NCBI GenBank assembly: GCA_001029735.1
Contig: CP011213.1
Coordinates: 591,929 to 655,928 of the forward strand
Origin: Berkelbacteria bacterium GW2011_GWE1_39_12
Lineage (GTDB): Bacteria; Patescibacteriota; UBA1384; UBA12157
Direction: 5' to 3'
Length of the DNA: 64,000 nucleotides
Below, piece by piece: positions 2,133-64,000 of the stretch. Position numbers and translations under genes: made by a program. Every line of letters starts with the position of its first letter. Position 1 is the first letter of the stretch. The notes under the pieces were generated by a model. That model did no database searches. It was given only the letters and a program-made list of their open reading frames with translations, and had not been told where the DNA came from.

Positions 2133-4134
2133 TTTACCGATTTCAAATTTGTTAGGTGTCGGTCCTAAAATGGCCGAAAAATTAGAAAGGTTGGGGATAG
2201 AAACTATCCGCGATCTTCTTTTTTATTACCCTCGAACTTACGATGATTTTACAAATCCTGTGCCAATCAAAAGTTTAAGAATTGATGACGAAAAAATCAT
2301 TAAAGCCAAGATTATTAAAATAAGCGAGGCCCGAACGAACCGCCGGTGGATGAGCTTAATTAAAGCCAAATTGGCAGACGAAACTGGTGAAATTGAAGCC
2401 GTTTGGTTTAATCAATCCTTTTTATTAAATGTTTTAAAAGAAGGTAGTGAATTTTTGTTTTTAGGCAAAGTGCATTGGGATTTTAAAAATAAGAAGAAGA
2501 ATTTTACTGTTACTAGCTATGAAAAAGAAGCGAAAATACTACCGGTTTACGGTGAAACCGAAGGTTTAACCAGTAAATTTTTGCGTAAATTGATCGAACC
2601 TTTGCTCGAAAAATTTTCTATCGTTGACTATTTGCCTGACGAAATTAAAAAGGAGCAAAGCTTAATTGATTTAGCCAGCGCAGTTAAAAACATTCATTTC
2701 CCAGCTACGAATGATCAGATGCATGCGGCCAGACGGCGCATTGCTTTTGACGAATTGTTTTTCATTGCTTTAAAAATGCAAGAGGCTAAAAAAGAGCTGT
2801 CTGTTTCACGTGCGCCAAAAATAAAATTCGATGAAAATATTTTAAAAAATTTTGTGAATGACTTGCCGTATAAATTAACAAACGCACAAAGAAAAACGGC
2901 ATGGGAAATAGTCCAAGATTTAGAAAATAGTCGGCCGATGAATCGTTTATTGGAAGGCGATGTCGGTTCCGGCAAAACCGTAGTCGCTGCGATGGCGGTA
3001 TTAACTACGGTTAAGGCTGGCTTCCAAGCAGTTTGGTTGGCGCCAACAACGATTTTGGCTAATCAGCATTACCAAAATGTTTCAAAATTATTAAAAGATA
3101 TTAAAGTAGGTATTTGGACGGCCGGCAGTAAACTGGCAGATTTTAAAAACGATGATTTAATTATTGGTACCCACGCCTTGGTGCAAAAAGGTGTAAACTT
3201 TGATCGCTTAGCCTTGATTATTGTCGATGAGCAACATCGTTTTGGTGTAAAACAACGAGCCTTTTTGAAGGAGGGTGCCTTTAAAAAAAATGACACAGTC
3301 CCACACTTTCTTTCGATGACAGCCACGCCGATTCCGAGAACTTTAGCCCTAGCTTTTTATGGTGATTTAGATCTATCGATTATCAATGAAATGCCAGCGG
3401 GCCGCCAAAAAGTCATTACGAAAATTGTGCCTCCAAAAGAACGTAATCAAGCATATGATTTTATTAAAAACCAAGTTGAAGCTGGCCGACAAGTCTTTGT
3501 CATTTGTCCTTTAATCGACGAAAAGGTTTCATCAGATCGTTTATTGGACGTGGATAGAAAATCAGCGGTTAAGGAGTATGAAAAGCTTTCAAAAAAAATA
3601 TTTCCGCAGTTCAAGGTTGGTCTTTTACATGGCAAGATGAAGGTGTCGGAAAAAGACGAGGTGATGCAAAAATTCAAAAACAAAAAGATTGATATTTTAG
3701 TTTCCACAGCCGTAGTCGAAGTTGGCATCGATATTCCCAACGCTACTGTTATGATGATTGAAGATGCGGAGCGTTTCGGTTTAGCTCAACTTCATCAATT
3801 TAGAGGTCGTGTGGGTAGAGGCAAAGATCAGTCATATTGTTTAATTTTCTCCGAGAGCTGGTCGGATTCGACGAAAAAGCGCTTAAAAGCGATGATCACT
3901 TGCGACAATGGTTTTGACCTAGCAGAAATCGATTTGGATTTAAGGGGTCCAGGTGAATTCACGGGATTTTGTCAATCAGGTTTACCGGACTTGAAAATGG
4001 CCTCACTTTCAGATAGAATAATGATAGAAAAGGCCAAGGTGGCAGCAGAGAACGTGGTTAAAAAAGGCATCGAAAATTATCCAAAGCTATTGGAAAAATT
4101 TAAAGAATTTGCTATCACTAAGCATTTGGAATGA
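2122..4134 (+). CDS. recG: ATP-dependent DNA helicase RecG
   Basis: Walker A 'GDVGSGKT', the 'DEQHRFGV' motif, an N-terminal wedge/OB region and the 670 aa length all fit RecG. Confidence 0.85.
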   Translation: MNYDLPISNLLGVGPKMAEKLERLGIETIRDLLFYYPRTYDDFTNPVPIKSLRIDDEKIIKAKIIKISEARTNRRWMSLIKAKLADETGEIEAVWFNQSFLLNVLKEGSEFLFLGKVHWDFKNKKKNFTVTSYEKEAKILPVYGETEGLTSKFLRKLIEPLLEKFSIVDYLPDEIKKEQSLIDLASAVKNIHFPATNDQMHAARRRIAFDELFFIALKMQEAKKELSVSRAPKIKFDENILKNFVNDLPYKLTNAQRKTAWEIVQDLENSRPMNRLLEGDVGSGKTVVAAMAVLTTVKAGFQAVWLAPTTILANQHYQNVSKLLKDIKVGIWTAGSKLADFKNDDLIIGTHALVQKGVNFDRLALIIVDEQHRFGVKQRAFLKEGAFKKNDTVPHFLSMTATPIPRTLALAFYGDLDLSIINEMPAGRQKVITKIVPPKERNQAYDFIKNQVEAGRQVFVICPLIDEKVSSDRLLDVDRKSAVKEYEKLSKKIFPQFKVGLLHGKMKVSEKDEVMQKFKNKKIDILVSTAVVEVGIDIPNATVMMIEDAERFGLAQLHQFRGRVGRGKDQSYCLIFSESWSDSTKKRLKAMITCDNGFDLAEIDLDLRGPGEFTGFCQSGLPDLKMASLSDRIMIEKAKVAAENVVKKGIENYPKLLEKFKEFAITKHLE

Positions 4135-4565: not shown

Positions 4566-5162
4566 ATGGGTGAAATACTAAATGAATCAGTTGGCCAGAT
4601 TACCACAAAGACCCTTAGCGATGTTGAACCGACTGCTTTTTGTAGCTCAACGATAATATTAAATCCTGAACATTTAAGAGAAGTAGTCGAGGAACCATTA
4701 ATTCCCGCTTGCGAAATTTTATACCAAAAAAATATCGAGACGGCAGATAGCTCTGCTAATAATAAAGATATCAGATCCGGTGGGGATGCGAGAATTTGTA
4801 TCAATTGGGATTCTTTATCTGAGGAAAACAGAAAAATTGTCGAAGGCTTGGGTTTGGAGCCTGTACCCTTTAATAATTTCCAGGTAGTAATATTACAAGA
4901 ACCGATTGAAGAAAAAACGACAGTTCAGGAGCTTTCAAACAAGTTCACAGAAAAAGCAAACATGTTCTTATTGCAAGAGCCAAAATGGATTCCAAGCTTT
5001 ACAATGGATGACTTAAGAAAAGAATATGGATATAGTGAAAGTGATGAGAGCACGCCAGAAGATTTTGAACAAGATTATTATGATCAAGAGTCAAAGAGAT
5101 TTTATTTGAGTGAAGATCATTATCGTAAAGTAAAGGAATGGGAAGATAGTCAAGTTAAATAA
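4566..5162 (+). CDS. hypothetical protein with acidic C-terminus
   Basis: Long ORF translationally coupled to comEA. I recognise no motifs. Confidence 0.4.
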   Translation: MGEILNESVGQITTKTLSDVEPTAFCSSTIILNPEHLREVVEEPLIPACEILYQKNIETADSSANNKDIRSGGDARICINWDSLSEENRKIVEGLGLEPVPFNNFQVVILQEPIEEKTTVQELSNKFTEKANMFLLQEPKWIPSFTMDDLRKEYGYSESDESTPEDFEQDYYDQESKRFYLSEDHYRKVKEWEDSQVK

Positions 5163-5167
5163 TTTAT

Positions 5168-5251
5168 GCCCGGGTGGTGAAATGGTATACACGCCAGTTT
5201 TAGGAACTGGTGTCGAAAGACGTGGAGGTTCGAGTCCTCTCCCGGGCACCA
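5168..5251 (+). tRNA. tRNA-Leu (anticodon TAG), class II with long variable arm, CCA encoded
   Basis: Hand-folded. Acceptor GCCCGGG pairs with CCCGGGC; anticodon stem CCAGT/ACTGG; loop TTTAGGA; variable arm GGTGTCGAAAGACGTG; T-arm GGTTCGAGTCC. Confidence 0.85.
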
Positions 5252-5286
5252 ATGCAATAATAATCCAATGATATTTTATGACCGAT

Positions 5287-5329
5287 GGTGTCGAAAGACG
5301 TGGAGCTAGTTGTCTAAAGGCGGGCACCA
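5287..5329 (+). pseudogene. degenerate copy of the tRNA-Leu(TAG) 3' portion (variable arm plus acceptor end, T-arm replaced)
   Basis: A 19-nt exact repeat GGTGTCGAAAGACGTGGAG and the terminal CGGGCACCA recur 36 nt downstream of the intact tRNA. Confidence 0.6.
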
Positions 5330-12555: not shown

Positions 12556-14053
12556 AGTTTATTCAACCTCCGTATTGGGGCTCGATGCGATGCCGATTGA
12601 AGTTGAAGTTGATATTTCAAATGGCCTACCGTCATTAACGATTGTTGGACTTCCCGATAAAGCAATTGAAGAATCAAAAGAAAGAGTACGGTCAGCTATT
12701 AAAAATTCTGGTGCAAACTTTCCGGTTAAAAAACTAACGATCAATTTAGCGCCGGCAGATTTAAAAAAAGAAGGTCCGGCATATGATTTGCCGATTGCTA
12801 TCGGTATTCTTACTGCCGATGAGCAAATCCCAAAAATTAGTGAAAAAGTTTTATTTGTTGGTGAATTGGCATTAGATGGAAATCTACGCCATATCAATGG
12901 AATTTTGCCAACCGTTTTAATGGCTAAGGAAAAAGGATATCAAAAGGTCTATTTACCGGATGTGAACAAAGATGAAGCGATCATGGTCAAAGGAATCGAA
13001 ATCATTCCGGTAAAAAATTTAAAAGAATTAATATATCATTTAAAAAATGAAAAAGCTATACCAAGTTTTTTTAAGAAATTCCAAATAATAACTGATAGAA
13101 AATACGAAAATGACATGACCTTTGTTAAGGGTCAGGAAAATGCTAAACGGGCATTGGAAATAGCGGCGGCCGGGGGACACAATATTTTGATGTCTGGCCC
13201 CCCAGGATCGGGAAAAACATTACTAGCCAAAACTATTCCATCGATTTTACCTGAACTCAATGAAGACGAAATTTTAGAAGTCACAAAAATTTATTCCGTT
13301 GCAGGGTTATTGCCTCATGACGAACCTTTAATATCGATCCGACCTTTCAGGTCACCGCATCACACTACTTCGAATGTTGCCTTAGTCGGTGGCGGCACTT
13401 TTCCGCGACCGGGTGAAATTACTTTATCGCATCGCGGCGTGTTATTTTTAGATGAATTTGCTGAATTTCCGCGAAGTGTTTTAGAAGCACTACGCCAACC
13501 TTTGGAAGATGGAGTTATAACCGTTTCTAGGGCGCAGGGTTCAATAACATATCCAGCCAAGTTTATTTTAGTTGCCGCACAAAATCCTTGTCCCTGCGGT
13601 TATTTAGGTGATGAATCTAAAAATTGTATATGCACCCCGACGCAAATTATTCGTTATCAAAAAAGAGTTTCAGGTCCGTTATTAGATCGCATCGATTTGC
13701 ACGTGGAAGTGCCGCGAATTAAATACGAAAAGCTGGCTTCTGAAAGTGTCGCGGAAAAATCCATAGAAATAAGAAAACGCGTCGAAATAGCGCGAAAAGT
13801 ACAAAATAAGAGAGCTAAAAAAACTAATTCCGAATTTAGTCCAAGAGATATTAAAGCTTATTGCGGCTTAGACGAAGAGGGGAAAAATTTATTGAAGCAT
13901 GCAGTCAATAACTTAAATCTTTCAGCCCGTCAATATTCGAGAATTTTAAAAGTTTCTCGAACAATTGCCGATCTATCTGTAAGTGATGATATTAAAAAAG
14001 AACATATTGCTGAGAGCTTGCAATATAGACCTAAAGAGCAAAATATATATTAA
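12542..14053 (+). CDS. comM: YifB/ComM-family Mg-chelatase-like AAA+ ATPase
   Basis: N-terminal Lon-like domain 'VLGLDAMPIEVEVDISNGLPSLTIVGLPDKAIEESKERVRSAI', Walker A 'GPPGSGKT', a Cys-rich insertion, and about 500 aa length. Confidence 0.8.
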   Translation: MSLAKVYSTSVLGLDAMPIEVEVDISNGLPSLTIVGLPDKAIEESKERVRSAIKNSGANFPVKKLTINLAPADLKKEGPAYDLPIAIGILTADEQIPKISEKVLFVGELALDGNLRHINGILPTVLMAKEKGYQKVYLPDVNKDEAIMVKGIEIIPVKNLKELIYHLKNEKAIPSFFKKFQIITDRKYENDMTFVKGQENAKRALEIAAAGGHNILMSGPPGSGKTLLAKTIPSILPELNEDEILEVTKIYSVAGLLPHDEPLISIRPFRSPHHTTSNVALVGGGTFPRPGEITLSHRGVLFLDEFAEFPRSVLEALRQPLEDGVITVSRAQGSITYPAKFILVAAQNPCPCGYLGDESKNCICTPTQIIRYQKRVSGPLLDRIDLHVEVPRIKYEKLASESVAEKSIEIRKRVEIARKVQNKRAKKTNSEFSPRDIKAYCGLDEEGKNLLKHAVNNLNLSARQYSRILKVSRTIADLSVSDDIKKEHIAESLQYRPKEQNIY

Positions 14054-14619: not shown

Positions 14620-14648
14620 TTTACAAGGTCTATTCTTTTTGCTATCAT
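14620..14648 (+). promoter_or_regulatory. candidate sigma70-type promoter for the tRNA-Gly/tRNA-Cys cluster
   Basis: TTTACA, a 17-nt spacer, then TATCAT, about 10 nt upstream of the first tRNA-like hairpin. Confidence 0.3.
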
Positions 14649-14668: not shown

Positions 14669-14757
14669 GTGAGAGTAGTTCAGCTTATCTGAACTACCTG
14701 CAAAGAATACGCGAGAGTAGTTTCAGCTGTTCCTGAACTATCTCGCAAAAACAATTA
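14669..14757 (+). repeat. two tandem hairpin-forming partial copies of the 5' end of tRNA-Gly(GCC)
   Basis: GTGAGAGTAGTTCAG..CTGAACTAC and GCGAGAGTAGTTTCAG..CTGAACTATCTCGC both share the GCGAGAGTAGTTCA 5' end of the adjacent tRNA. Confidence 0.6.
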
Positions 14758-14832
14758 GCGAGAGTAGTTCATCGGTAGAACGTCTCCTTGCCAAGGAGAA
14801 GGTAGCGGGTTCAATTCCCGTCTCTCGCTCCA
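14758..14832 (+). tRNA. tRNA-Gly (anticodon GCC), CCA encoded
   Basis: Acceptor GCGAGAG pairs with CTCTCGC; D-stem GTTC/GAAC; anticodon stem TCTCC/GGAGA with loop TTGCCAA; T-arm GCGGGTTCAATTCCCGT. Confidence 0.85.
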
Positions 14833-24655: not shown

Positions 24656-24730
24656 GCCTGGGTAGCTCAGTGGTAGAGCACATGACTGAAAATCATGGTG
24701 TCGGCAGTCCGATCCTGCCCCCAGGCACCA
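24656..24730 (+). tRNA. tRNA-Phe (anticodon GAA), CCA encoded
   Basis: Acceptor GCCTGGG pairs with CCCAGGC; D-arm AGCTCAGTGGTAGAGC; anticodon stem CATGA/TCATG with loop CTGAAAA; T-arm GGCAGTCCGATCCTGCC. Confidence 0.85.
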
Positions 24731-24793
24731 GTTTCTTATGAGTAGCAATAGATGATTTTCGTTGGCTGGTTGAATTTGGTCTGTCTTTCGACA

Positions 24794-24835
24794 GACCCTG
24801 CCCGCGTGCTGCTGCAGGCACCAGTTTCTATCTTG
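24794..24835 (+). pseudogene. degenerate copy of the tRNA-Phe 3' end plus 6 nt of its 3' flank
   Basis: CCCTGCCCGCGTGCTGCTGCAGGCACCAGTTTCT matches CCTGCCCCCAGGCACCAGTTTCT at the tRNA 3' end. It is preceded by a perfect 8-bp hairpin at 24778-24797. Confidence 0.55.
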
Positions 24836-62082: not shown

Positions 62083-62154
62083 GCTCGACCGGATTCGAAC
62101 CGGCGATCTCCTCCGTGACAGGGAGGCGCTTTGAACCGGCTAAGCTACGAGCCC
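62077..62154 (-). tRNA. tRNA-Asp (anticodon GTC), CCA encoded
   Basis: Reverse complement reads GGGCTCG-TA-GCTT..AAGC-G-CCTCC-CTGTCAC-GGAGG-AGATC-GCCGGTTCGAATCCGGT-CGAGCCC-G-CCA. Confidence 0.8.
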
Positions 62155-62185
62155 GTACACAAATACAATCTATTCAATTTTACTT

Positions 62186-62272
62186 CGGGCTCTTGTTCTT
62201 TGCTGGTTCAAAGCAAGCTTTGAAACCGGTAGATCCTTCGGAATTCGTCAAAACCGAAAAAGCTACGAGCCC
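62186..62272 (-). pseudogene. degenerate tRNA-Asp-like copy adjacent to, and upstream in tRNA sense of, the intact tRNA-Asp
   Basis: It shares CGGGCTC, CTTTGAA(A)CCGG and AAGCTACGAGCCC with the tRNA, but the middle is replaced and expanded. Confidence 0.5.
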
Positions 62273-62373
62273 ATAATTTTCTCAGTTCAAGATAGATCAT
62301 ATCACAAAAAGACTATTATTTCAACTCTTATTCTTCCATTTTAAGGTTAAATTTGCTACAATCATGATATAAA

Positions 62374-62453
62374 GCGGGTATGGTTTAGTTCAGAACGTGA
62401 CCTTCCCAAATTTTGCGCAGGTATAGTTTAGTGGCAAAATGCGTCCTTCCCGG
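62374..62453 (+). pseudogene. two tandem degenerate 5' halves of tRNA-Gly(CCC) (acceptor-D arm-anticodon loop TTCCCAA/TTCCCGG)
   Basis: GCGGGTATGGTTTAGTTCAGAACGTGACCTTCCCAAA and GCGCAGGTATAGTTTAGTGGCAAAATGCGTCCTTCCCGGA. Compare the tRNA 5' half GCGGGATTAGTATAGTGGTAATATGTATCCTTCCCAAGG. Confidence 0.6.
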
Positions 62454-62463
62454 ATTTATTGGA

Positions 62464-62537
62464 GCGGGATTAGTATAGTGGTAATATGTATCCTTCCCAA
62501 GGATAAGATGCCAGTTCGATTCTGGTATCCCGCTCCA
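62464..62537 (+). tRNA. tRNA-Gly (anticodon CCC), CCA encoded
   Basis: Acceptor GCGGGAT pairs with ATCCCGC; anticodon stem TATCC/GGATA with loop TTCCCAA; T-arm GCCAGTTCGATTCTGGT. Confidence 0.8.
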
Positions 62538-62588
62538 ATAAATCTGCATGTAGGATGGTATGGCTTACCTGCTCCAGTAAAAATTTTC

Positions 62589-62663
62589 GCCCGGATAGCT
62601 CAGTGGTAGAGCAGTTCCTTCGTAAGGAAAAGGTCGGAGGTTCAAATCCTCTTCCGGGCTCCA
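62589..62663 (+). tRNA. tRNA-Thr (anticodon CGT), CCA encoded
   Basis: Acceptor GCCCGGA pairs with TCCGGGC; D-arm GCTCAGTGGTAGAGC; anticodon loop TTCGTAA; T-arm GGAGGTTCAAATCCTCT. Confidence 0.8.
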
Positions 62664-62681
62664 GCGAAAATTTAAAAGAAG

Positions 62682-62715
62682 AGGTCGGCAGTTCAAATCT
62701 GCCCATCGGCTCCCA
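62682..62715 (+). pseudogene. degenerate copy of the tRNA-Thr 3' portion (variable region, T-arm, acceptor)
   Basis: AGGTCGGCAGTTCAAATCTGCCCATCGGCTCCCA matches AGGTCGGAGGTTCAAATCCTCTTCCGGGCTCCA at the tRNA 3' end. Confidence 0.55.
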
Positions 62716-62780
62716 AACAATAAAAGAAAGTTAGGTTCCGTCTTTAGGCATTCATTCGACTCTCGGAAGCTCCGTAAATT

Positions 62781-63107
62781 ATGAAAATATTAAATTATTT
62801 TTTAAGACAAATTAAATATTTCTTTTTTAACCCATTTTGGTTAAATTGGTTTGTGTTGTTAGAGTTTGTTTTGATCCTTCTTTTGAATTTCATTATTTGG
62901 TATCTCTACTTAGATAAATACAAAGATTTTCTTAATTTAACACCGATTGTTTTTTCATCAGCTGTGGCAATAATTAATCTTTTTATGGCTGTTATTATTT
63001 ATCCGAAAGAAAAAAATATTAGCATCATACTTCTTACCATCGGTTTGATGGTTCAATTTTTGATTTTATTTTTTATTAAAATGACAGTGATTTCCGGATC
63101 TTTTTAA
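62781..63107 (+). CDS. small hypothetical membrane protein (3 TM helices)
   Basis: Hydrophobic 108-aa ORF upstream of the GT2 gene. Confidence 0.35.
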   Translation: MKILNYFLRQIKYFFFNPFWLNWFVLLEFVLILLLNFIIWYLYLDKYKDFLNLTPIVFSSAVAIINLFMAVIIYPKEKNISIILLTIGLMVQFLILFFIKMTVISGSF

Positions 63108-63115
63108 GGAGAAAA

Positions 63116-64000
63116 TTGAAAAAAACTAAAATTATTCGTTTTCTTGAAATTGTTCCTGGAGCTATTATTTGGATTGCATTTATTTTGCCAGTTTTCTTAT
63201 CTTTCATCATTCCGGCCGCTGTGGCGACTTACGTTATTATTTTTGATCTCTATTGGCTCTACAAATCAATTGTAATGGGCTACCATCTTATTACTGGGTA
63301 TAGATTAATGAAACATGATATAAAAATTGATTGGATCGAAAAATGTCGAAATCTTGAGTCTGATCCGATCAATTTAAAATGGACCGGTATTTATCATGCA
63401 GTCATGTTTGCTGTTTCCAAAGAAAACGTGGAAACCGTTTTGTCTTCCGTTGAAGCCTTGGCCCGATCAGATTATCCACTTAAGAAAATTATTTTAGTAT
63501 TAGCGACTGAAGCGCGTTATCCGGTTCAGGGTCAAGAAGTTGTTGACCAGGTGACAAAAAAATTCGATGGCAAATTTTTCAAAATTATTTCTTCGTCACA
63601 TCCAGATATCGTTGGTGAAGTAAAAGCTAAGGGAGCTAACGCGCGTTGGGCAGCTAAGCAGCTTCAAAAATATATAGAGCTAGAAAAAATTCTTTTTGAA
63701 GATGTTATCGTTACTACCGCAGATTGTGATACTCGTTTTCATCCAAAGTATCTTGCTTCTTTAACTTACAAATACATCACCGACCCAAATCGTGATCATA
63801 GAAGTTTTCAGCCAATCCCATTGTATTCAAATAATATTTGGTATGCCCCAGCAATTTCTCGGGTAATCGCTTTTGGCAATTCGTTTTGGCAACTGATTGA
63901 GGTAACCAGGCCATGGCGATTAATGAATTTTTCCACTCATGCGATGAGTTTGAAAATGCTAGTCGAAATTGATTTTTGGGACGTTTCAGTTGTTAATGAA
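63116..64000 (+). CDS. family-2 glycosyltransferase (cellulose-synthase/PNAG-synthase-like), membrane-anchored; 3' end outside the window
   Basis: TTG start with an AAGGAG RBS. The frame is open to the window end. Two N-terminal TM helices, then a GT-A fold with 'VTTADCDTRFHPKYL' (DxD region). Confidence 0.55.
   Translation, partial: MKKTKIIRFLEIVPGAIIWIAFILPVFLSFIIPAAVATYVIIFDLYWLYKSIVMGYHLITGYRLMKHDIKIDWIEKCRNLESDPINLKWTGIYHAVMFAVSKENVETVLSSVEALARSDYPLKKIILVLATEARYPVQGQEVVDQVTKKFDGKFFKIISSSHPDIVGEVKAKGANARWAAKQLQKYIELEKILFEDVIVTTADCDTRFHPKYLASLTYKYITDPNRDHRSFQPIPLYSNNIWYAPAISRVIAFGNSFWQLIEVTRPWRLMNFSTHAMSLKMLVEIDFWDVSVVNE

Follow-up and report, generated by a model that had tools for sequence, protein, structure and literature searches.

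Why should a tRNA gene of an ultra-small bacterium be accompanied by broken copies of a tRNA gene of its own kind? The question is raised by a 64,000-nt stretch of DNA (hereafter the window) of a Candidatus Berkelbacteria organism (Patescibacteria) from Rifle groundwater, in which 11 tRNA genes are called at the coordinates used here by both ARAGORN and Rfam, and at six of whose tRNA loci a sequence-only reading had reported degenerate partial copies. These partial copies are probably the remains of earlier resident tRNA genes, displaced in place by tRNA-carrying cassettes. Such serial replacement recurs across a comparison panel of ultra-small bacteria, comprising 60 related loci (L-numbered, 707 kb).

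Each tRNA was aligned by Smith-Waterman with its own ±200-nt flanks, the null being 800 alignments against window sequence outside the tRNAs. The null maximum was exceeded at five of the six claimed loci: the downstream flank of tRNA-Leu(TAG) scored 43 (null maximum 22-26), the upstream flank of tRNA-Gly(CCC) 32 (24), the downstream flank of tRNA-Thr 30 (23), the upstream flank of tRNA-Asp 27 (20), and the upstream flank of tRNA-Gly(GCC), which holds two copies, 24 (23). With these five loci beating the random-alignment null and an exact 15-nt repeat at tRNA-Phe, the reported copies are real. When all 11 tRNAs were compared with the tRNA-masked 64 kb by blastn-short, the best four matches all lay within 106 nt of the cognate gene and on its strand. 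An assembly artefact was ruled out as the source of the copies because independent assemblies are identical, positions 62154-64000 being reproduced with 0 mismatches in L066, which comes from another sample. Assembly contigs end at 62154 and 62456; nested loci of the kind described below break assemblies.

The Gly(CCC) locus contains the following features.

62349-62362, + strand: putative promoter motif AAATTTGCTACAAT with a TG-extended -10, ending 11 nt before the outermost relic
62374-62409, + strand: relic A, the 5' half (positions 1-38) of an older tRNA-Gly(CCC) of GCGGGTA type; outermost layer
62417-62451, + strand: relic C, from a second older tRNA-Gly(CCC) of GCAGGTA type: its 5' half, positions 1-36
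62451-62463, + strand: left inverted repeat of the cassette, CGGATTTATTGGA, pairing in register with 62534-62546
62464-62537, + strand: functional tRNA-Gly(CCC), allele type B, innermost (ARAGORN and Rfam, 65 bits)
62534-62546, + strand: right inverted repeat TCCAATAAATCTG, encoded CCA included, pairing with the left repeat
62552-62576, + strand: 3' part of relic C, AGGATGGTATGGCTTACCTGCTCCA, consisting of the anticodon-stem 3' strand and the acceptor 3' strand

The locus is a three-layer nest, A[C[B]C], i.e. A5'-C5'-[IR-B-IR]-C3', in which the older layers are other alleles of the gene. Relic A, which stops in the anticodon loop, matches the functional L004 and L031 genes at 33/37 positions and its intact neighbour at 25/37; for the 5' half of relic C the identity is 34/35 with the functional Gly(CCC) gene in L007 and 27/35 with the neighbour. 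The 3' part of relic C has its T arm deleted; it is collinear with the outer 3' half in L017 (AGGATGGGATGCGGGTTCGATTCCCGCTATCTGCTCCA), is identical to L031 and L015 at 12 of 12 positions, and its TACCTGC pairs with the GCAGGTA of the 5' half. Two tandem 5' halves had been described here from the sequence alone. Both exist, at 62374-62409 and 62417-62451, and they appear tandem because insertion layers are stacked; the third relic at 62552-62576 had been overlooked. The inverted repeats prolong the acceptor stem of the type-B gene to 20 bp. Over its 3'-most 43 nt this gene does not differ from the inner one in the L017 nest, and between the window and L017 a 5-bp block of the repeats is altered on both arms in a compensatory manner. 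The element AAATTTGCTATAAT and its variants lie about 10 nt upstream of functional Gly(CCC) genes in L004, L009, L012, L013, L016 and L064, a conservation suggesting that the motif at 62349-62362 acts as the promoter; this + strand site was missed by the promoter scanner because it is without a -35 hexamer.

The adjoining Thr(CGT) locus is organized in a similar manner.

62581-62588, + strand: left inverted repeat of the Thr cassette, AAATTTTC, complementary to 62666-62673 in a run of 8
62589-62663, + strand: functional tRNA-Thr(CGT) (ARAGORN, Rfam)
62666-62673, + strand: right inverted repeat of the Thr cassette, GAAAATTT, pairing with 62581-62588
62673-62715, + strand: relic of an older tRNA-Thr(CGT) of GCCGATG/CATCGGC type: its 3' half, from about position 36 to 76

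The downstream copy, formerly described as a 3' third, exists and is a 3' half (62673-62715). It agrees with the genes of L024, L039 and L043 at 34/39 positions and with its neighbour at 31/41; the relic has an intact T stem, GGCAG/CTGCC, that differs from the neighbour's GGAGG/CCTCT, and its acceptor strand CATCGGC is unable to pair with GCCCGGA of that gene. The relics in the window are decaying, with the T arm deleted and the D stem broken, and halves joined in silico are not called by ARAGORN. The orthologous Gly-Thr loci of L003, L004, L007 and L062 are compact, with the two genes 2 nt apart and the copies absent.

Among the relatives, the intact form of a nest is an older tRNA gene split in the anticodon loop by an inverted repeat, a complete tRNA of the same anticodon and a second inverted repeat, the repeats lengthening the acceptor stem to an 18-20-bp helix. 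The outer Gly gene of L017 is broken at 37/38 by TGATTTCCCAGA-[inner Gly]-TCTGGGAAATCA, and the outer Gly and outer Thr genes of L028 are both broken at 35/36; more nests are present in L014, L016, L013, L027, L031, L064 and L015. When the insert is removed in silico from L017 Gly, L028 Thr, L028 Gly and L013 Asp, ARAGORN calls a tRNA with the same anticodon in each case. No decay is seen in the outer halves of L017 and L028, yet 15-25% of their positions differ from the inner gene, and the inner and outer acceptor stems of L028 Thr are each self-consistent and mutually incompatible (GCCGATA/TATCGGC vs GCCGATG/CATCGGC). L016 has an intact Gly gene of GCAGATA type, which in L017 is precisely interrupted; the neighbouring GT2 genes of these two loci share 86% amino acid identity, and their Thr genes show the reverse occupancy. 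Relics in the relatives are riddled with additional hairpin inserts.

The earlier suspicion that the pattern is systematic holds across the panel, which was assembled around two syntenic marker genes and is not a genome-wide or phylum-wide sample: relics lie within 300 nt of 34 of its 190 tRNAs. A panel-wide count by blastn-short gave 38 tRNA fragments in 707 kb. Of these, 37 have a tRNA on their own strand no more than 300 nt away, and 33 have a cognate tRNA nearby; breakpoints concentrate in the anticodon and T loops. The acceptor stem is extended in register by 0-3 bp in 190 of 194 tRNAs and by 12-15 bp in the other 4, and relics accompany long leader-trailer helices (7/8 vs 25/178, Fisher p = 1.7e-5). 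The fold predicted for a nest is a cloverleaf within a cloverleaf (z = -5.1 and -5.6).

The copies at tRNA-Leu(TAG) and tRNA-Phe lie downstream of the functional genes and bring in a second possible source of partial copies.

5274-5329, + strand: tRNA-Leu(TAG) relic, a 3' half that starts in the anticodon loop, has a degenerate T arm and extends to CCA
24797-24829, + strand: fragment of the palindromic element PE1, CCTGCCCGC-gtgctgc-TGCAGGC, fused to a second tRNA-Phe 3' end and trailer

The Leu(TAG) relic is 22 nt downstream of its functional gene (5168-5251). At the Phe locus, the exact 15-nt repeat CAGGCACCAGTTTCT occurs at 24722-24736 and 24815-24829 and includes 6 nt of trailer. It is an att-like duplication of the 3' end and another kind of repeat than those of the remaining loci; the 3' fragment noted there earlier thus exists, but as an exact repeat fused to a palindromic-element fragment. 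Integrative elements target tRNA genes at the anticodon loop, the T loop or the 3' end, carry a replacement portion and leave att duplications. The copies could on this basis be decayed att sites, left when elements with tyrosine or serine recombinases brought a replacement tRNA part and were later lost, leaving the displaced part behind. The breakpoints in the anticodon and T loops, which are classical integrase sublocations, would fit this account, as would the Phe repeat, the exact 18-26-nt repeats of the T-loop-to-3'-end segment found 59-164 nt downstream in relatives, and the large serine recombinase and AbiE island beside tRNA-Asp in L004 and L005. Downstream 3' direct repeats are present at Thr (62673-62715), Leu(TAG) (5274-5329) and Phe (24815-24829), but upstream 5' halves are left uncovered; these are as frequent as downstream 3' halves, and both may flank one gene. 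The gaps of 8-25 nt contain neither element nor integrase, and around the window repeats, with gaps of 11-84 nt, Pfam searches of all neighbouring ORFs detected no integrase or transposase beside the tRNA loci. Nor are the inner genes hybrids of host and element: both in L028 Thr and in the window, where CATCGGC of the Thr relic faces the retained GCCCGGA unpaired, inner and outer acceptor stems are each self-consistent and mutually incompatible. The inner genes also sit between inverted repeats, which att recombination does not make. Decayed att sites are therefore an unlikely source of the copies in general and fit just the Phe-type exact 3' repeats and the T-loop class of the relatives, and the sequence-only reading was right that upstream 5' halves escape this mechanism.

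Displacement by a tRNA-carrying cassette nevertheless shares features with the action of integrative elements: the nest insertion lies inside a tRNA at the anticodon or T loop, the insert restores the interrupted function, and the displaced old piece stays as a direct partial repeat. In contrast to integrative elements, the nest insert is about 100 nt long and holds a whole tRNA rather than a part; the cassette is without a recombinase, is bracketed by inverted repeats and depends on the old promoter; and both old halves remain a few nt from the new gene, with layers that stack.

The Gly(GCC) and Asp loci differ from the clean nests.

14620-14648, + strand: Gly(GCC) operon promoter TTTACA-17-TATCAT, conserved in L001 as TTTACA-17-TATGAT
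14669-14705, + strand: hairpin copy 1, nt 1-15 of tRNA-Gly(GCC), loop, reverse complement of these 15 nt and an anticodon-loop remnant
14711-14746, + strand: hairpin copy 2, GCGAGAGTAGTTTCAG-ctgttc-CTGAACTATCTCGC, 14 bp with two bulges
14758-14832, + strand: functional tRNA-Gly(GCC) (ARAGORN, Rfam), 74/75 identical to L001
62077-62154, - strand: functional tRNA-Asp(GTC) (ARAGORN, Rfam)
62186-62272, - strand: degenerate whole-length tRNA-Asp relic (alignment score 27 on the same strand, 25 on the opposite strand)
62296-62324, - strand: promoter-like site TTGAAA-17-TATGAT upstream of the Asp relic, with 10/12 consensus matches and a TG

In both the window and L001, the Gly(GCC) promoter is followed by 20 nt and then a GCGAGAG/GTGAGAG start, which belongs to the functional gene in L001 and to hairpin copy 1 in the window; hairpin copy 2 is missing at the orthologous L001 locus. 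The Asp relic retains both acceptor strands, with a 30-nt hairpin insert in the D loop and an inverted copy of the D arm, and is without anticodon and T arms; it is placed between the functional gene and a site that is promoter-like by its consensus match. At Gly(CCC) and Gly(GCC) a conserved promoter, and at Asp a promoter-like consensus match, thus stand ahead of the outermost relic. In appearance, the Asp relic and the hairpins at Gly(GCC) are local partial duplications in which palindromes have formed, suggesting a more general alternative in which slippage or template switching at a hairpin-prone tRNA gene duplicates part of it together with its leader and builds palindromes, the copies then drifting, with no mobile or foreign DNA. 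In line with this, the Gly(GCC) copies, which are near-perfect palindromes, agree with their own neighbour gene over 12-14 identical nt and in the AATTA ahead of them, the Asp relic carries its inverted D-arm copy, the helix change between the window and L017 is block-wise and compensatory, as a template switch would give, and tandem whole-gene duplicates occur in L022 (two Asp genes) and L037 (two His genes). A copy closest to its adjacent gene, flank included, is found in part at Gly(GCC) and neither at Gly(CCC) nor at Thr, where the relics are other alleles with compensated stems, near-identical to functional genes elsewhere. The L017 and L028 outer halves are undecayed despite their 15-25% difference from the inner gene, and L016/L017 present a clean foreign-allele insertion in an otherwise conserved gene, so that local replication errors are improbable as the origin of the copies, to about the same degree as att decay.

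Far less probable still is that the half copies are functional RNAs (processing leaders, anticodon-nuclease decoys, or exons of split or intron-containing tRNAs): they lie between promoter and gene and so are probably transcribed, the L017 and L028 outer halves still form perfect cloverleaves, and between the window and L017 the two arms have changed in a way that preserves the helix, but the copies are unconserved at orthologous loci, the window relics are broken beyond an ARAGORN call, the relics of relatives are full of extra hairpin inserts, no Rfam family (group I introns included) is matched, and inspection by eye gave no bulge-helix-bulge at the junctions. The transcription or processing signal and the decoys proposed earlier are likewise not supported, the orthologous loci of the nearest relatives being compact and free of copies, and the copies themselves differing in kind between loci, decaying and stemming from other alleles. 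The third earlier proposal, a duplication or repair process of tRNA genes, pointed in the right direction, the copies being scars of serial gene replacement.

From the nested anatomy, the allelic (foreign) origin of the relics, the link between long repeats and relics, the presence/absence differences and the position of the promoters, we infer the following insertion mechanism for replacement by cassettes. A short promoter-less cassette, consisting of a whole tRNA gene between inverted repeats that prolong its acceptor stem, would enter a resident gene with the same anticodon, most often at a point in the anticodon loop that lies between positions 34 and 38. The newcomer would be transcribed from the old gene's promoter via the old 5' half, and RNase P and 3' processing enzymes would presumably excise the new tRNA from the long helix. 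What is left of the old gene, its 5' half upstream and its 3' half downstream of the newcomer, would be redundant and then decay, and repeated rounds would pile up layers. Only insertions into a cognate gene would survive, since only there does the cargo replace what was destroyed.

The cassettes are about 100-111 nt long with 8-15-bp inverted repeats and no ORF. They may move as hairpin-type non-autonomous DNA elements that enter the exposed loops of stem-loops, since the GC-rich palindromic elements of this lineage behave in this way, and in some of them the arms enclose a tRNA. PE1 has the character of a DNA insertion: L001 recG contains it as 36 in-frame nt, placed behind nt 4 of the 7-nt loop of a hairpin whose stem is 5 bp, and the window recG is without it. 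Its arms bracket the inner tRNA-Thr in L028 and L064 and recur in L001, L003, L023, L027, L028, L029, L051 and L064. Across the window, a search for GC-rich palindromic elements gave just the fragment at tRNA-Phe; the window cassette repeats are AT-rich and unique and form no multi-copy family. Presence and absence with clean junctions at orthologous sites are seen for L016 vs L017 (Gly) and L001 vs the window (recG), with no target-site duplication seen at either, and the window yielded no candidate for an enzyme able to move cassettes. As a counterpoint to mobility, template switching at the acceptor-stem hairpin (quasi-palindrome correction) could make perfect in-register repeats. A nest, once formed, may also spread by ordinary recombination via the conserved tRNA halves and syntenic flanks.

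Three known systems bear comparison with the cassettes. In Archaea, disrupted tRNA genes comprise split, permuted and multiple-intron forms (PMC4390854, PMC4033280, PMC3218864). As in the nests, these are interrupted in the anticodon, D and T loops, with complementary sequences flanking the break that would draw the two halves together; unlike them, the nests have a bacterial host, the interrupting sequence holds a full tRNA, and the outer gene decays unspliced. The outer pieces give a valid cloverleaf in L017, L028 and L013 and not for the window relics, and inspection of the L017 and L028 junctions by eye revealed no 4-bp helix with staggered 3-nt bulges on either side. In Patescibacteria, group I introns are found in tRNA anticodon loops, enriched at 35/36 (PMC13011429); phylum, target loop and, for several nests, the preferred position 35/36 are the same, but the nest inserts are far too short for a ribozyme and carry a tRNA. 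No group I intron signal was obtained with Rfam in the window at E <= 10 or in 12 related loci at the gathering score, the latter giving tRNAs only. In the window search, tRNAs were the sole real matches and the rest were at chance level; an SpF41 match (E = 0.09) was rejected, as it overlaps the tRNA itself. The Rickettsia palindromic elements are small palindromic insertion elements, and like some of them PE1 sits in frame in a protein gene (recG). With these and with bacterial MITEs and other small palindromic insertion elements (PMC2229807, PMC10969869), the PE-type elements and cassettes share a short, non-coding, hairpin-forming and variably present sequence, and the cassettes have terminal inverted repeats. 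Unlike MITEs, some copies here have arms that enclose a tRNA, insertion is into the loop of a stem-loop, and the window cassettes have unique repeats that belong to no family.

No published description of bacterial tRNA-in-tRNA nests was found in the literature. If replacement by cassettes is true, it would be a new route for horizontal exchange of essential single-copy RNA genes, in which an insertion compensates its own damage via a complete substitute, and a bacterial counterpart to the disrupted tRNA genes of Archaea. Serial replacement may explain the very different alleles at orthologous tRNA sites of these tiny genomes; nests would be a dated, layered record of past tRNA alleles, and they disturb the assembly and tRNA annotation of metagenome-assembled genomes. 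A more ambitious reading, put forward tentatively and with somewhat less than even confidence, is that Berkelbacteria, and perhaps other Patescibacteria, harbour selfish promoter-less tRNA cassettes that home into the anticodon loop of the same tRNA, seize its promoter and replace the gene, spreading between lineages with conserved tRNA halves as homology arms, so that serial invasions give Russian-doll nests and extreme allele turnover.

Scanning genome contigs with the 285-aa hypothetical protein adjoining tRNA-Asp gave no relative, look-ups of P0121 and of the 108-aa ORF returned nothing but short contigs from the same organism, and a viral scan for the type-B 3' half returned nothing. The corresponding metagenome scan returned the window organism and the L017 organism again and no others. 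A homologous nest is common to the window and L017, though closer relatives are without it, a distribution for which horizontal transfer or several losses would be needed.

The sequence-only reading held that partial copies of tRNA genes lie beside the tRNA genes themselves, and this is borne out by alignment. The window has 11 tRNA genes according to both ARAGORN and Rfam; when each was aligned to its own 200-nt flanks, with 800 alignments to window segments free of tRNA as the null, five flanks scored above every null alignment: Leu(TAG) downstream (43), Gly(CCC) upstream (32), Thr(CGT) downstream (30), Asp upstream (27) and Gly(GCC) upstream (24, two copies). The Phe locus contains an exact repeat of 15 nt, including 6 nt of trailer. 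A blastn-short search with all tRNAs as queries, run on the window with its tRNA genes masked, placed its four top hits in 64 kb no more than 106 nt from the cognate gene, on the same strand. Positions 62154-64000 are identical in L066, an assembly from a different sample, which shows that the structure is real DNA. Independent assemblies of the same organism stop exactly at 62154, where the Asp gene/relic repeat begins, and, in two further assemblies, at 62456, inside the Gly nest (an older tRNA gene split by a complete tRNA between inverted repeats, IR); such repeats break short-read assemblies.

From genome to genome, strikingly different alleles occupy the syntenic Gly(CCC) and Thr(CGT) sites. 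Scored against an allele library from these sites, the window Gly(CCC) and Thr relics (partial remnants of older tRNA genes) are other alleles, not copies of the adjacent genes:

62374-62409, first Gly(CCC) 5' half (allele A), 33/37 identical to L004 and L031 versus 25/37 to its own neighbour
62417-62451, second Gly(CCC) 5' half (allele C), 34/35 identical to the L007 functional gene versus 27/35 to its own neighbour
62464-62537, functional tRNA-Gly(CCC) (allele B)
62552-62576, Gly-Thr spacer, a relic overlooked by the earlier reading, comprising the 3' strands of the anticodon stem and the acceptor stem; its allele is that of the second 5' half, whose GCAGGTA pairs with its TACCTGC
downstream of tRNA-Thr, Thr 3' half, 34/39 identical to L024, L039 and L043 versus 31/41 to its own neighbour

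The T stem of the Thr relic is perfect (GGCAG/CTGCC) and that of its neighbour differs (GGAGG/CCTCT); the relic acceptor strand CATCGGC is unable to pair with the neighbour's GCCCGGA.

In related loci, older genes are split by inserts with a full cognate tRNA between inverted repeats, and the alleles of the inserts differ from those of the host genes. An otherwise perfect tRNA-Gly(CCC) in L017 is split between positions 37 and 38 by an insert consisting of TGATTTCCCAGA, a complete tRNA-Gly(CCC) of another allele, TCTGGGAAATCA and gattctt; in L028, Gly and Thr are both split at 35/36 in the same manner. Further nests are as follows:

L013, Asp
L014, Gly
L015, Arg
L016, Thr and Pro
L027, Thr
L031, Glu
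L064, Gly, and Thr with three stacked alleles

In-silico deletion of the inserts yields tRNAs of the same anticodon, called by ARAGORN. The Gly locus of the window and the nest of L017 are collinear, with 43/43 nt of the inner 3' half the same and with homologous repeats and outer 3' piece; the window locus has one extra outer layer and greater decay, and it parses as A5'-C5'-[IR-B-IR]-C3'. Occupancy differs among close relatives: at 86% identity of the adjacent glycosyltransferase gene GT2, the Gly allele that L017 has in interrupted form is whole in L016, and Thr occupancy is the reverse, so the insertions are recent and polymorphic.

Dozens of relatives share the syntenic block Asp(-)/Gly(CCC)/Thr(CGT)/small membrane protein/GT2, and homologues of the window's adenylosuccinate lyase and GT2 are found in Patescibacteria, specifically Candidatus Berkelbacteria. 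The genes surrounding all tRNA loci of the window are housekeeping genes, with no integrase or transposase among them by Pfam. In the nearest relatives at this block (L003, L004 and L007; GT2 identity 69-73%), the Gly-Thr gap is 2 nt, the Asp-Gly spacer is 91 nt versus 309 nt in the window, Thr directly adjoins the next ORF, and there are no partial tRNA copies; relics are also absent from L062, despite a Gly-Thr spacer of ~100 nt. The Gly(GCC) promoter TTTACA-17-TAT(C/G)AT is common to L001 and the window; in L001 it is followed by 20 nt and the gene, and in the window by the same 20 nt and hairpin copy 1, with the gene 89 nt further on. The copies vary between orthologous loci; under the criterion that the sequence-only reading itself set, such variation points to decay rather than function.

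L001 has its own, different relics. A tRNA-Leu 5' fragment at 1656-1690, upstream of Leu-TAG, is 24/26 identical to the L001 Leu-TAA gene, with a matching 3' relic downstream; GCCTGGGTAGCT, at 13679-13690, is the 5' terminus of the window-type tRNA-Phe, and the tRNA-Phe that follows 115 nt further downstream is very different. Tandem complete duplicates occur for tRNA-Asp (L022:1700-2103) and tRNA-His (L037:6898-7136).

Across the panel of 60 related loci, with the allele library as query and relics scored within 300 nt of a tRNA, at least one relic lies beside 34/190 tRNAs, including Gly(CCC) (12/34), Thr(CGT) (6/37), Asp (3/18) and Arg(TCG) (3/7), and none beside His (0/13). When the whole 707-kb panel was searched, 37/38 tRNA fragments lay within 300 nt of a tRNA gene, a zone holding only 12.5% of panel bases; all those near tRNA genes are on the strand of that gene, and for 33 a cognate tRNA is close by. 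The anticodon loop is where upstream relics end and where downstream relics start. A second class starts in the T loop, as exact 18-26-nt repeats 59-164 nt downstream, and resembles the usual att duplication, here around very small inserts; the window Phe repeat belongs with this class and may be an att scar.

Conserved palindromic elements rich in GC also occur in these genomes. One of them, PE1 (CCTGCCCGCA-small hairpin-TGCAGGCGGG), is 'empty' in L001, L003, L023, L029 and L051, and its arms enclose tRNA-Thr in L028 and L064. The recG gene of L001 contains a 36-nt in-frame PE1 insertion (913-948, CCTGCCCGCAGTGCTTCGCAAAGCGATGCAGGCGGG, +12 residues); the window recG (3847-3894) lacks it, and the empty site forms a hairpin (5-bp stem, 7-nt loop); PE1 entered after loop nt 4, which is the geometry of anticodon-arm position 35/36. 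Other palindromic families occupy D and T loops in relic tRNAs, so that this lineage has loop-entering DNA elements, some of them tRNA-carrying. These include a D-loop hairpin family (TTGCCCCGCC..GGCGGGGTGAAG), a hairpin family after GGTT of the T loop (TCCGCCTACGCCGRRGCTAYGGCGGA) and a longer T-loop insert family (..CACTG..ACTAT..AATAGGTTT..CAGTAAGG..), inside which PE1 is nested in L003. These conserved hairpin families are located at:

L028:5311-5339
L039, ~4860-4890
L013, tRNA-Asp leader
L015
L001:1828-1856

GC-rich palindromic elements are almost absent from the window, and the repeats of the window cassettes are unique and AT-rich.

Leader and trailer of the inner genes pair with each other and so prolong the acceptor stem in register. 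The extension measures 0-3 bp for 190/194 tRNAs and 12-15 bp for four (window Gly(CCC), L017 Gly, L014 Gly and L016 Pro), and near-register runs of 11-14 bp occur in several additional tRNAs; relics accompany long helices (7/8 versus 25/178, p = 1.7e-5). In the predicted RNA folds a cloverleaf caps a 19-20-bp helix rising from the outer anticodon stem (z = -5.1 and -5.6). Five consecutive base pairs of this helix differ between the window and L017 on both arms, in a compensatory manner (ATTGG/CCAAT versus CCCAG/CTGGG), which fits either selection for pairing or a template switch copying one arm from the other; the inverted repeats may alternatively have arisen by template switching.

The promoter remains ahead of the outermost relic. 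The cassette itself probably lacks a promoter; it would have inserted as a hairpin-type non-autonomous element and relied on the promoter of the old gene; in essential single-copy tRNA genes only cognate-gene insertions would survive, and the nests may afterwards have spread via recombination. The nests may be likened to known elements that interrupt tRNA genes and mend the damage with their own cargo. The Gly(GCC) and Asp loci may instead have arisen by local duplication. Group I introns are known in Patescibacteria tRNAs (PMC13011429) and disrupted tRNAs in Archaea (PMC4390854, PMC3218864); apart from tRNA, Rfam gave no match to a group I intron or any other family in the window or in 12 related loci, and no bulge-helix-bulge was seen on inspection. 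The classical att model fails for the nests, both in the hybrid-gene test and because no element is present. Full-text literature searches returned intron, archaeal and MITE papers, and none that describes one tRNA lying inside another in bacteria.

In L004 (5786-9180) and L005 (1400-4794) the tRNA-Asp 3' end borders on an island that encodes a large serine recombinase, AbiEii and DUF6922, with a GGATTCGAAC fragment ~80 nt past the gene. The CCA end is encoded in all 11 window tRNAs and is not encoded in several orthologues of relatives (Leu-TAG, Leu-GAG and Val in L001; Gly-CCC in L003 and L004). At the syntenic site of L013 (5122-5193) and L008 (5523-5594), Gly(CCC) is, its altered anticodon apart, near-identical to the tRNA-Gly(GCC) of this lineage, suggesting recruitment of a paralogue through an anticodon switch.
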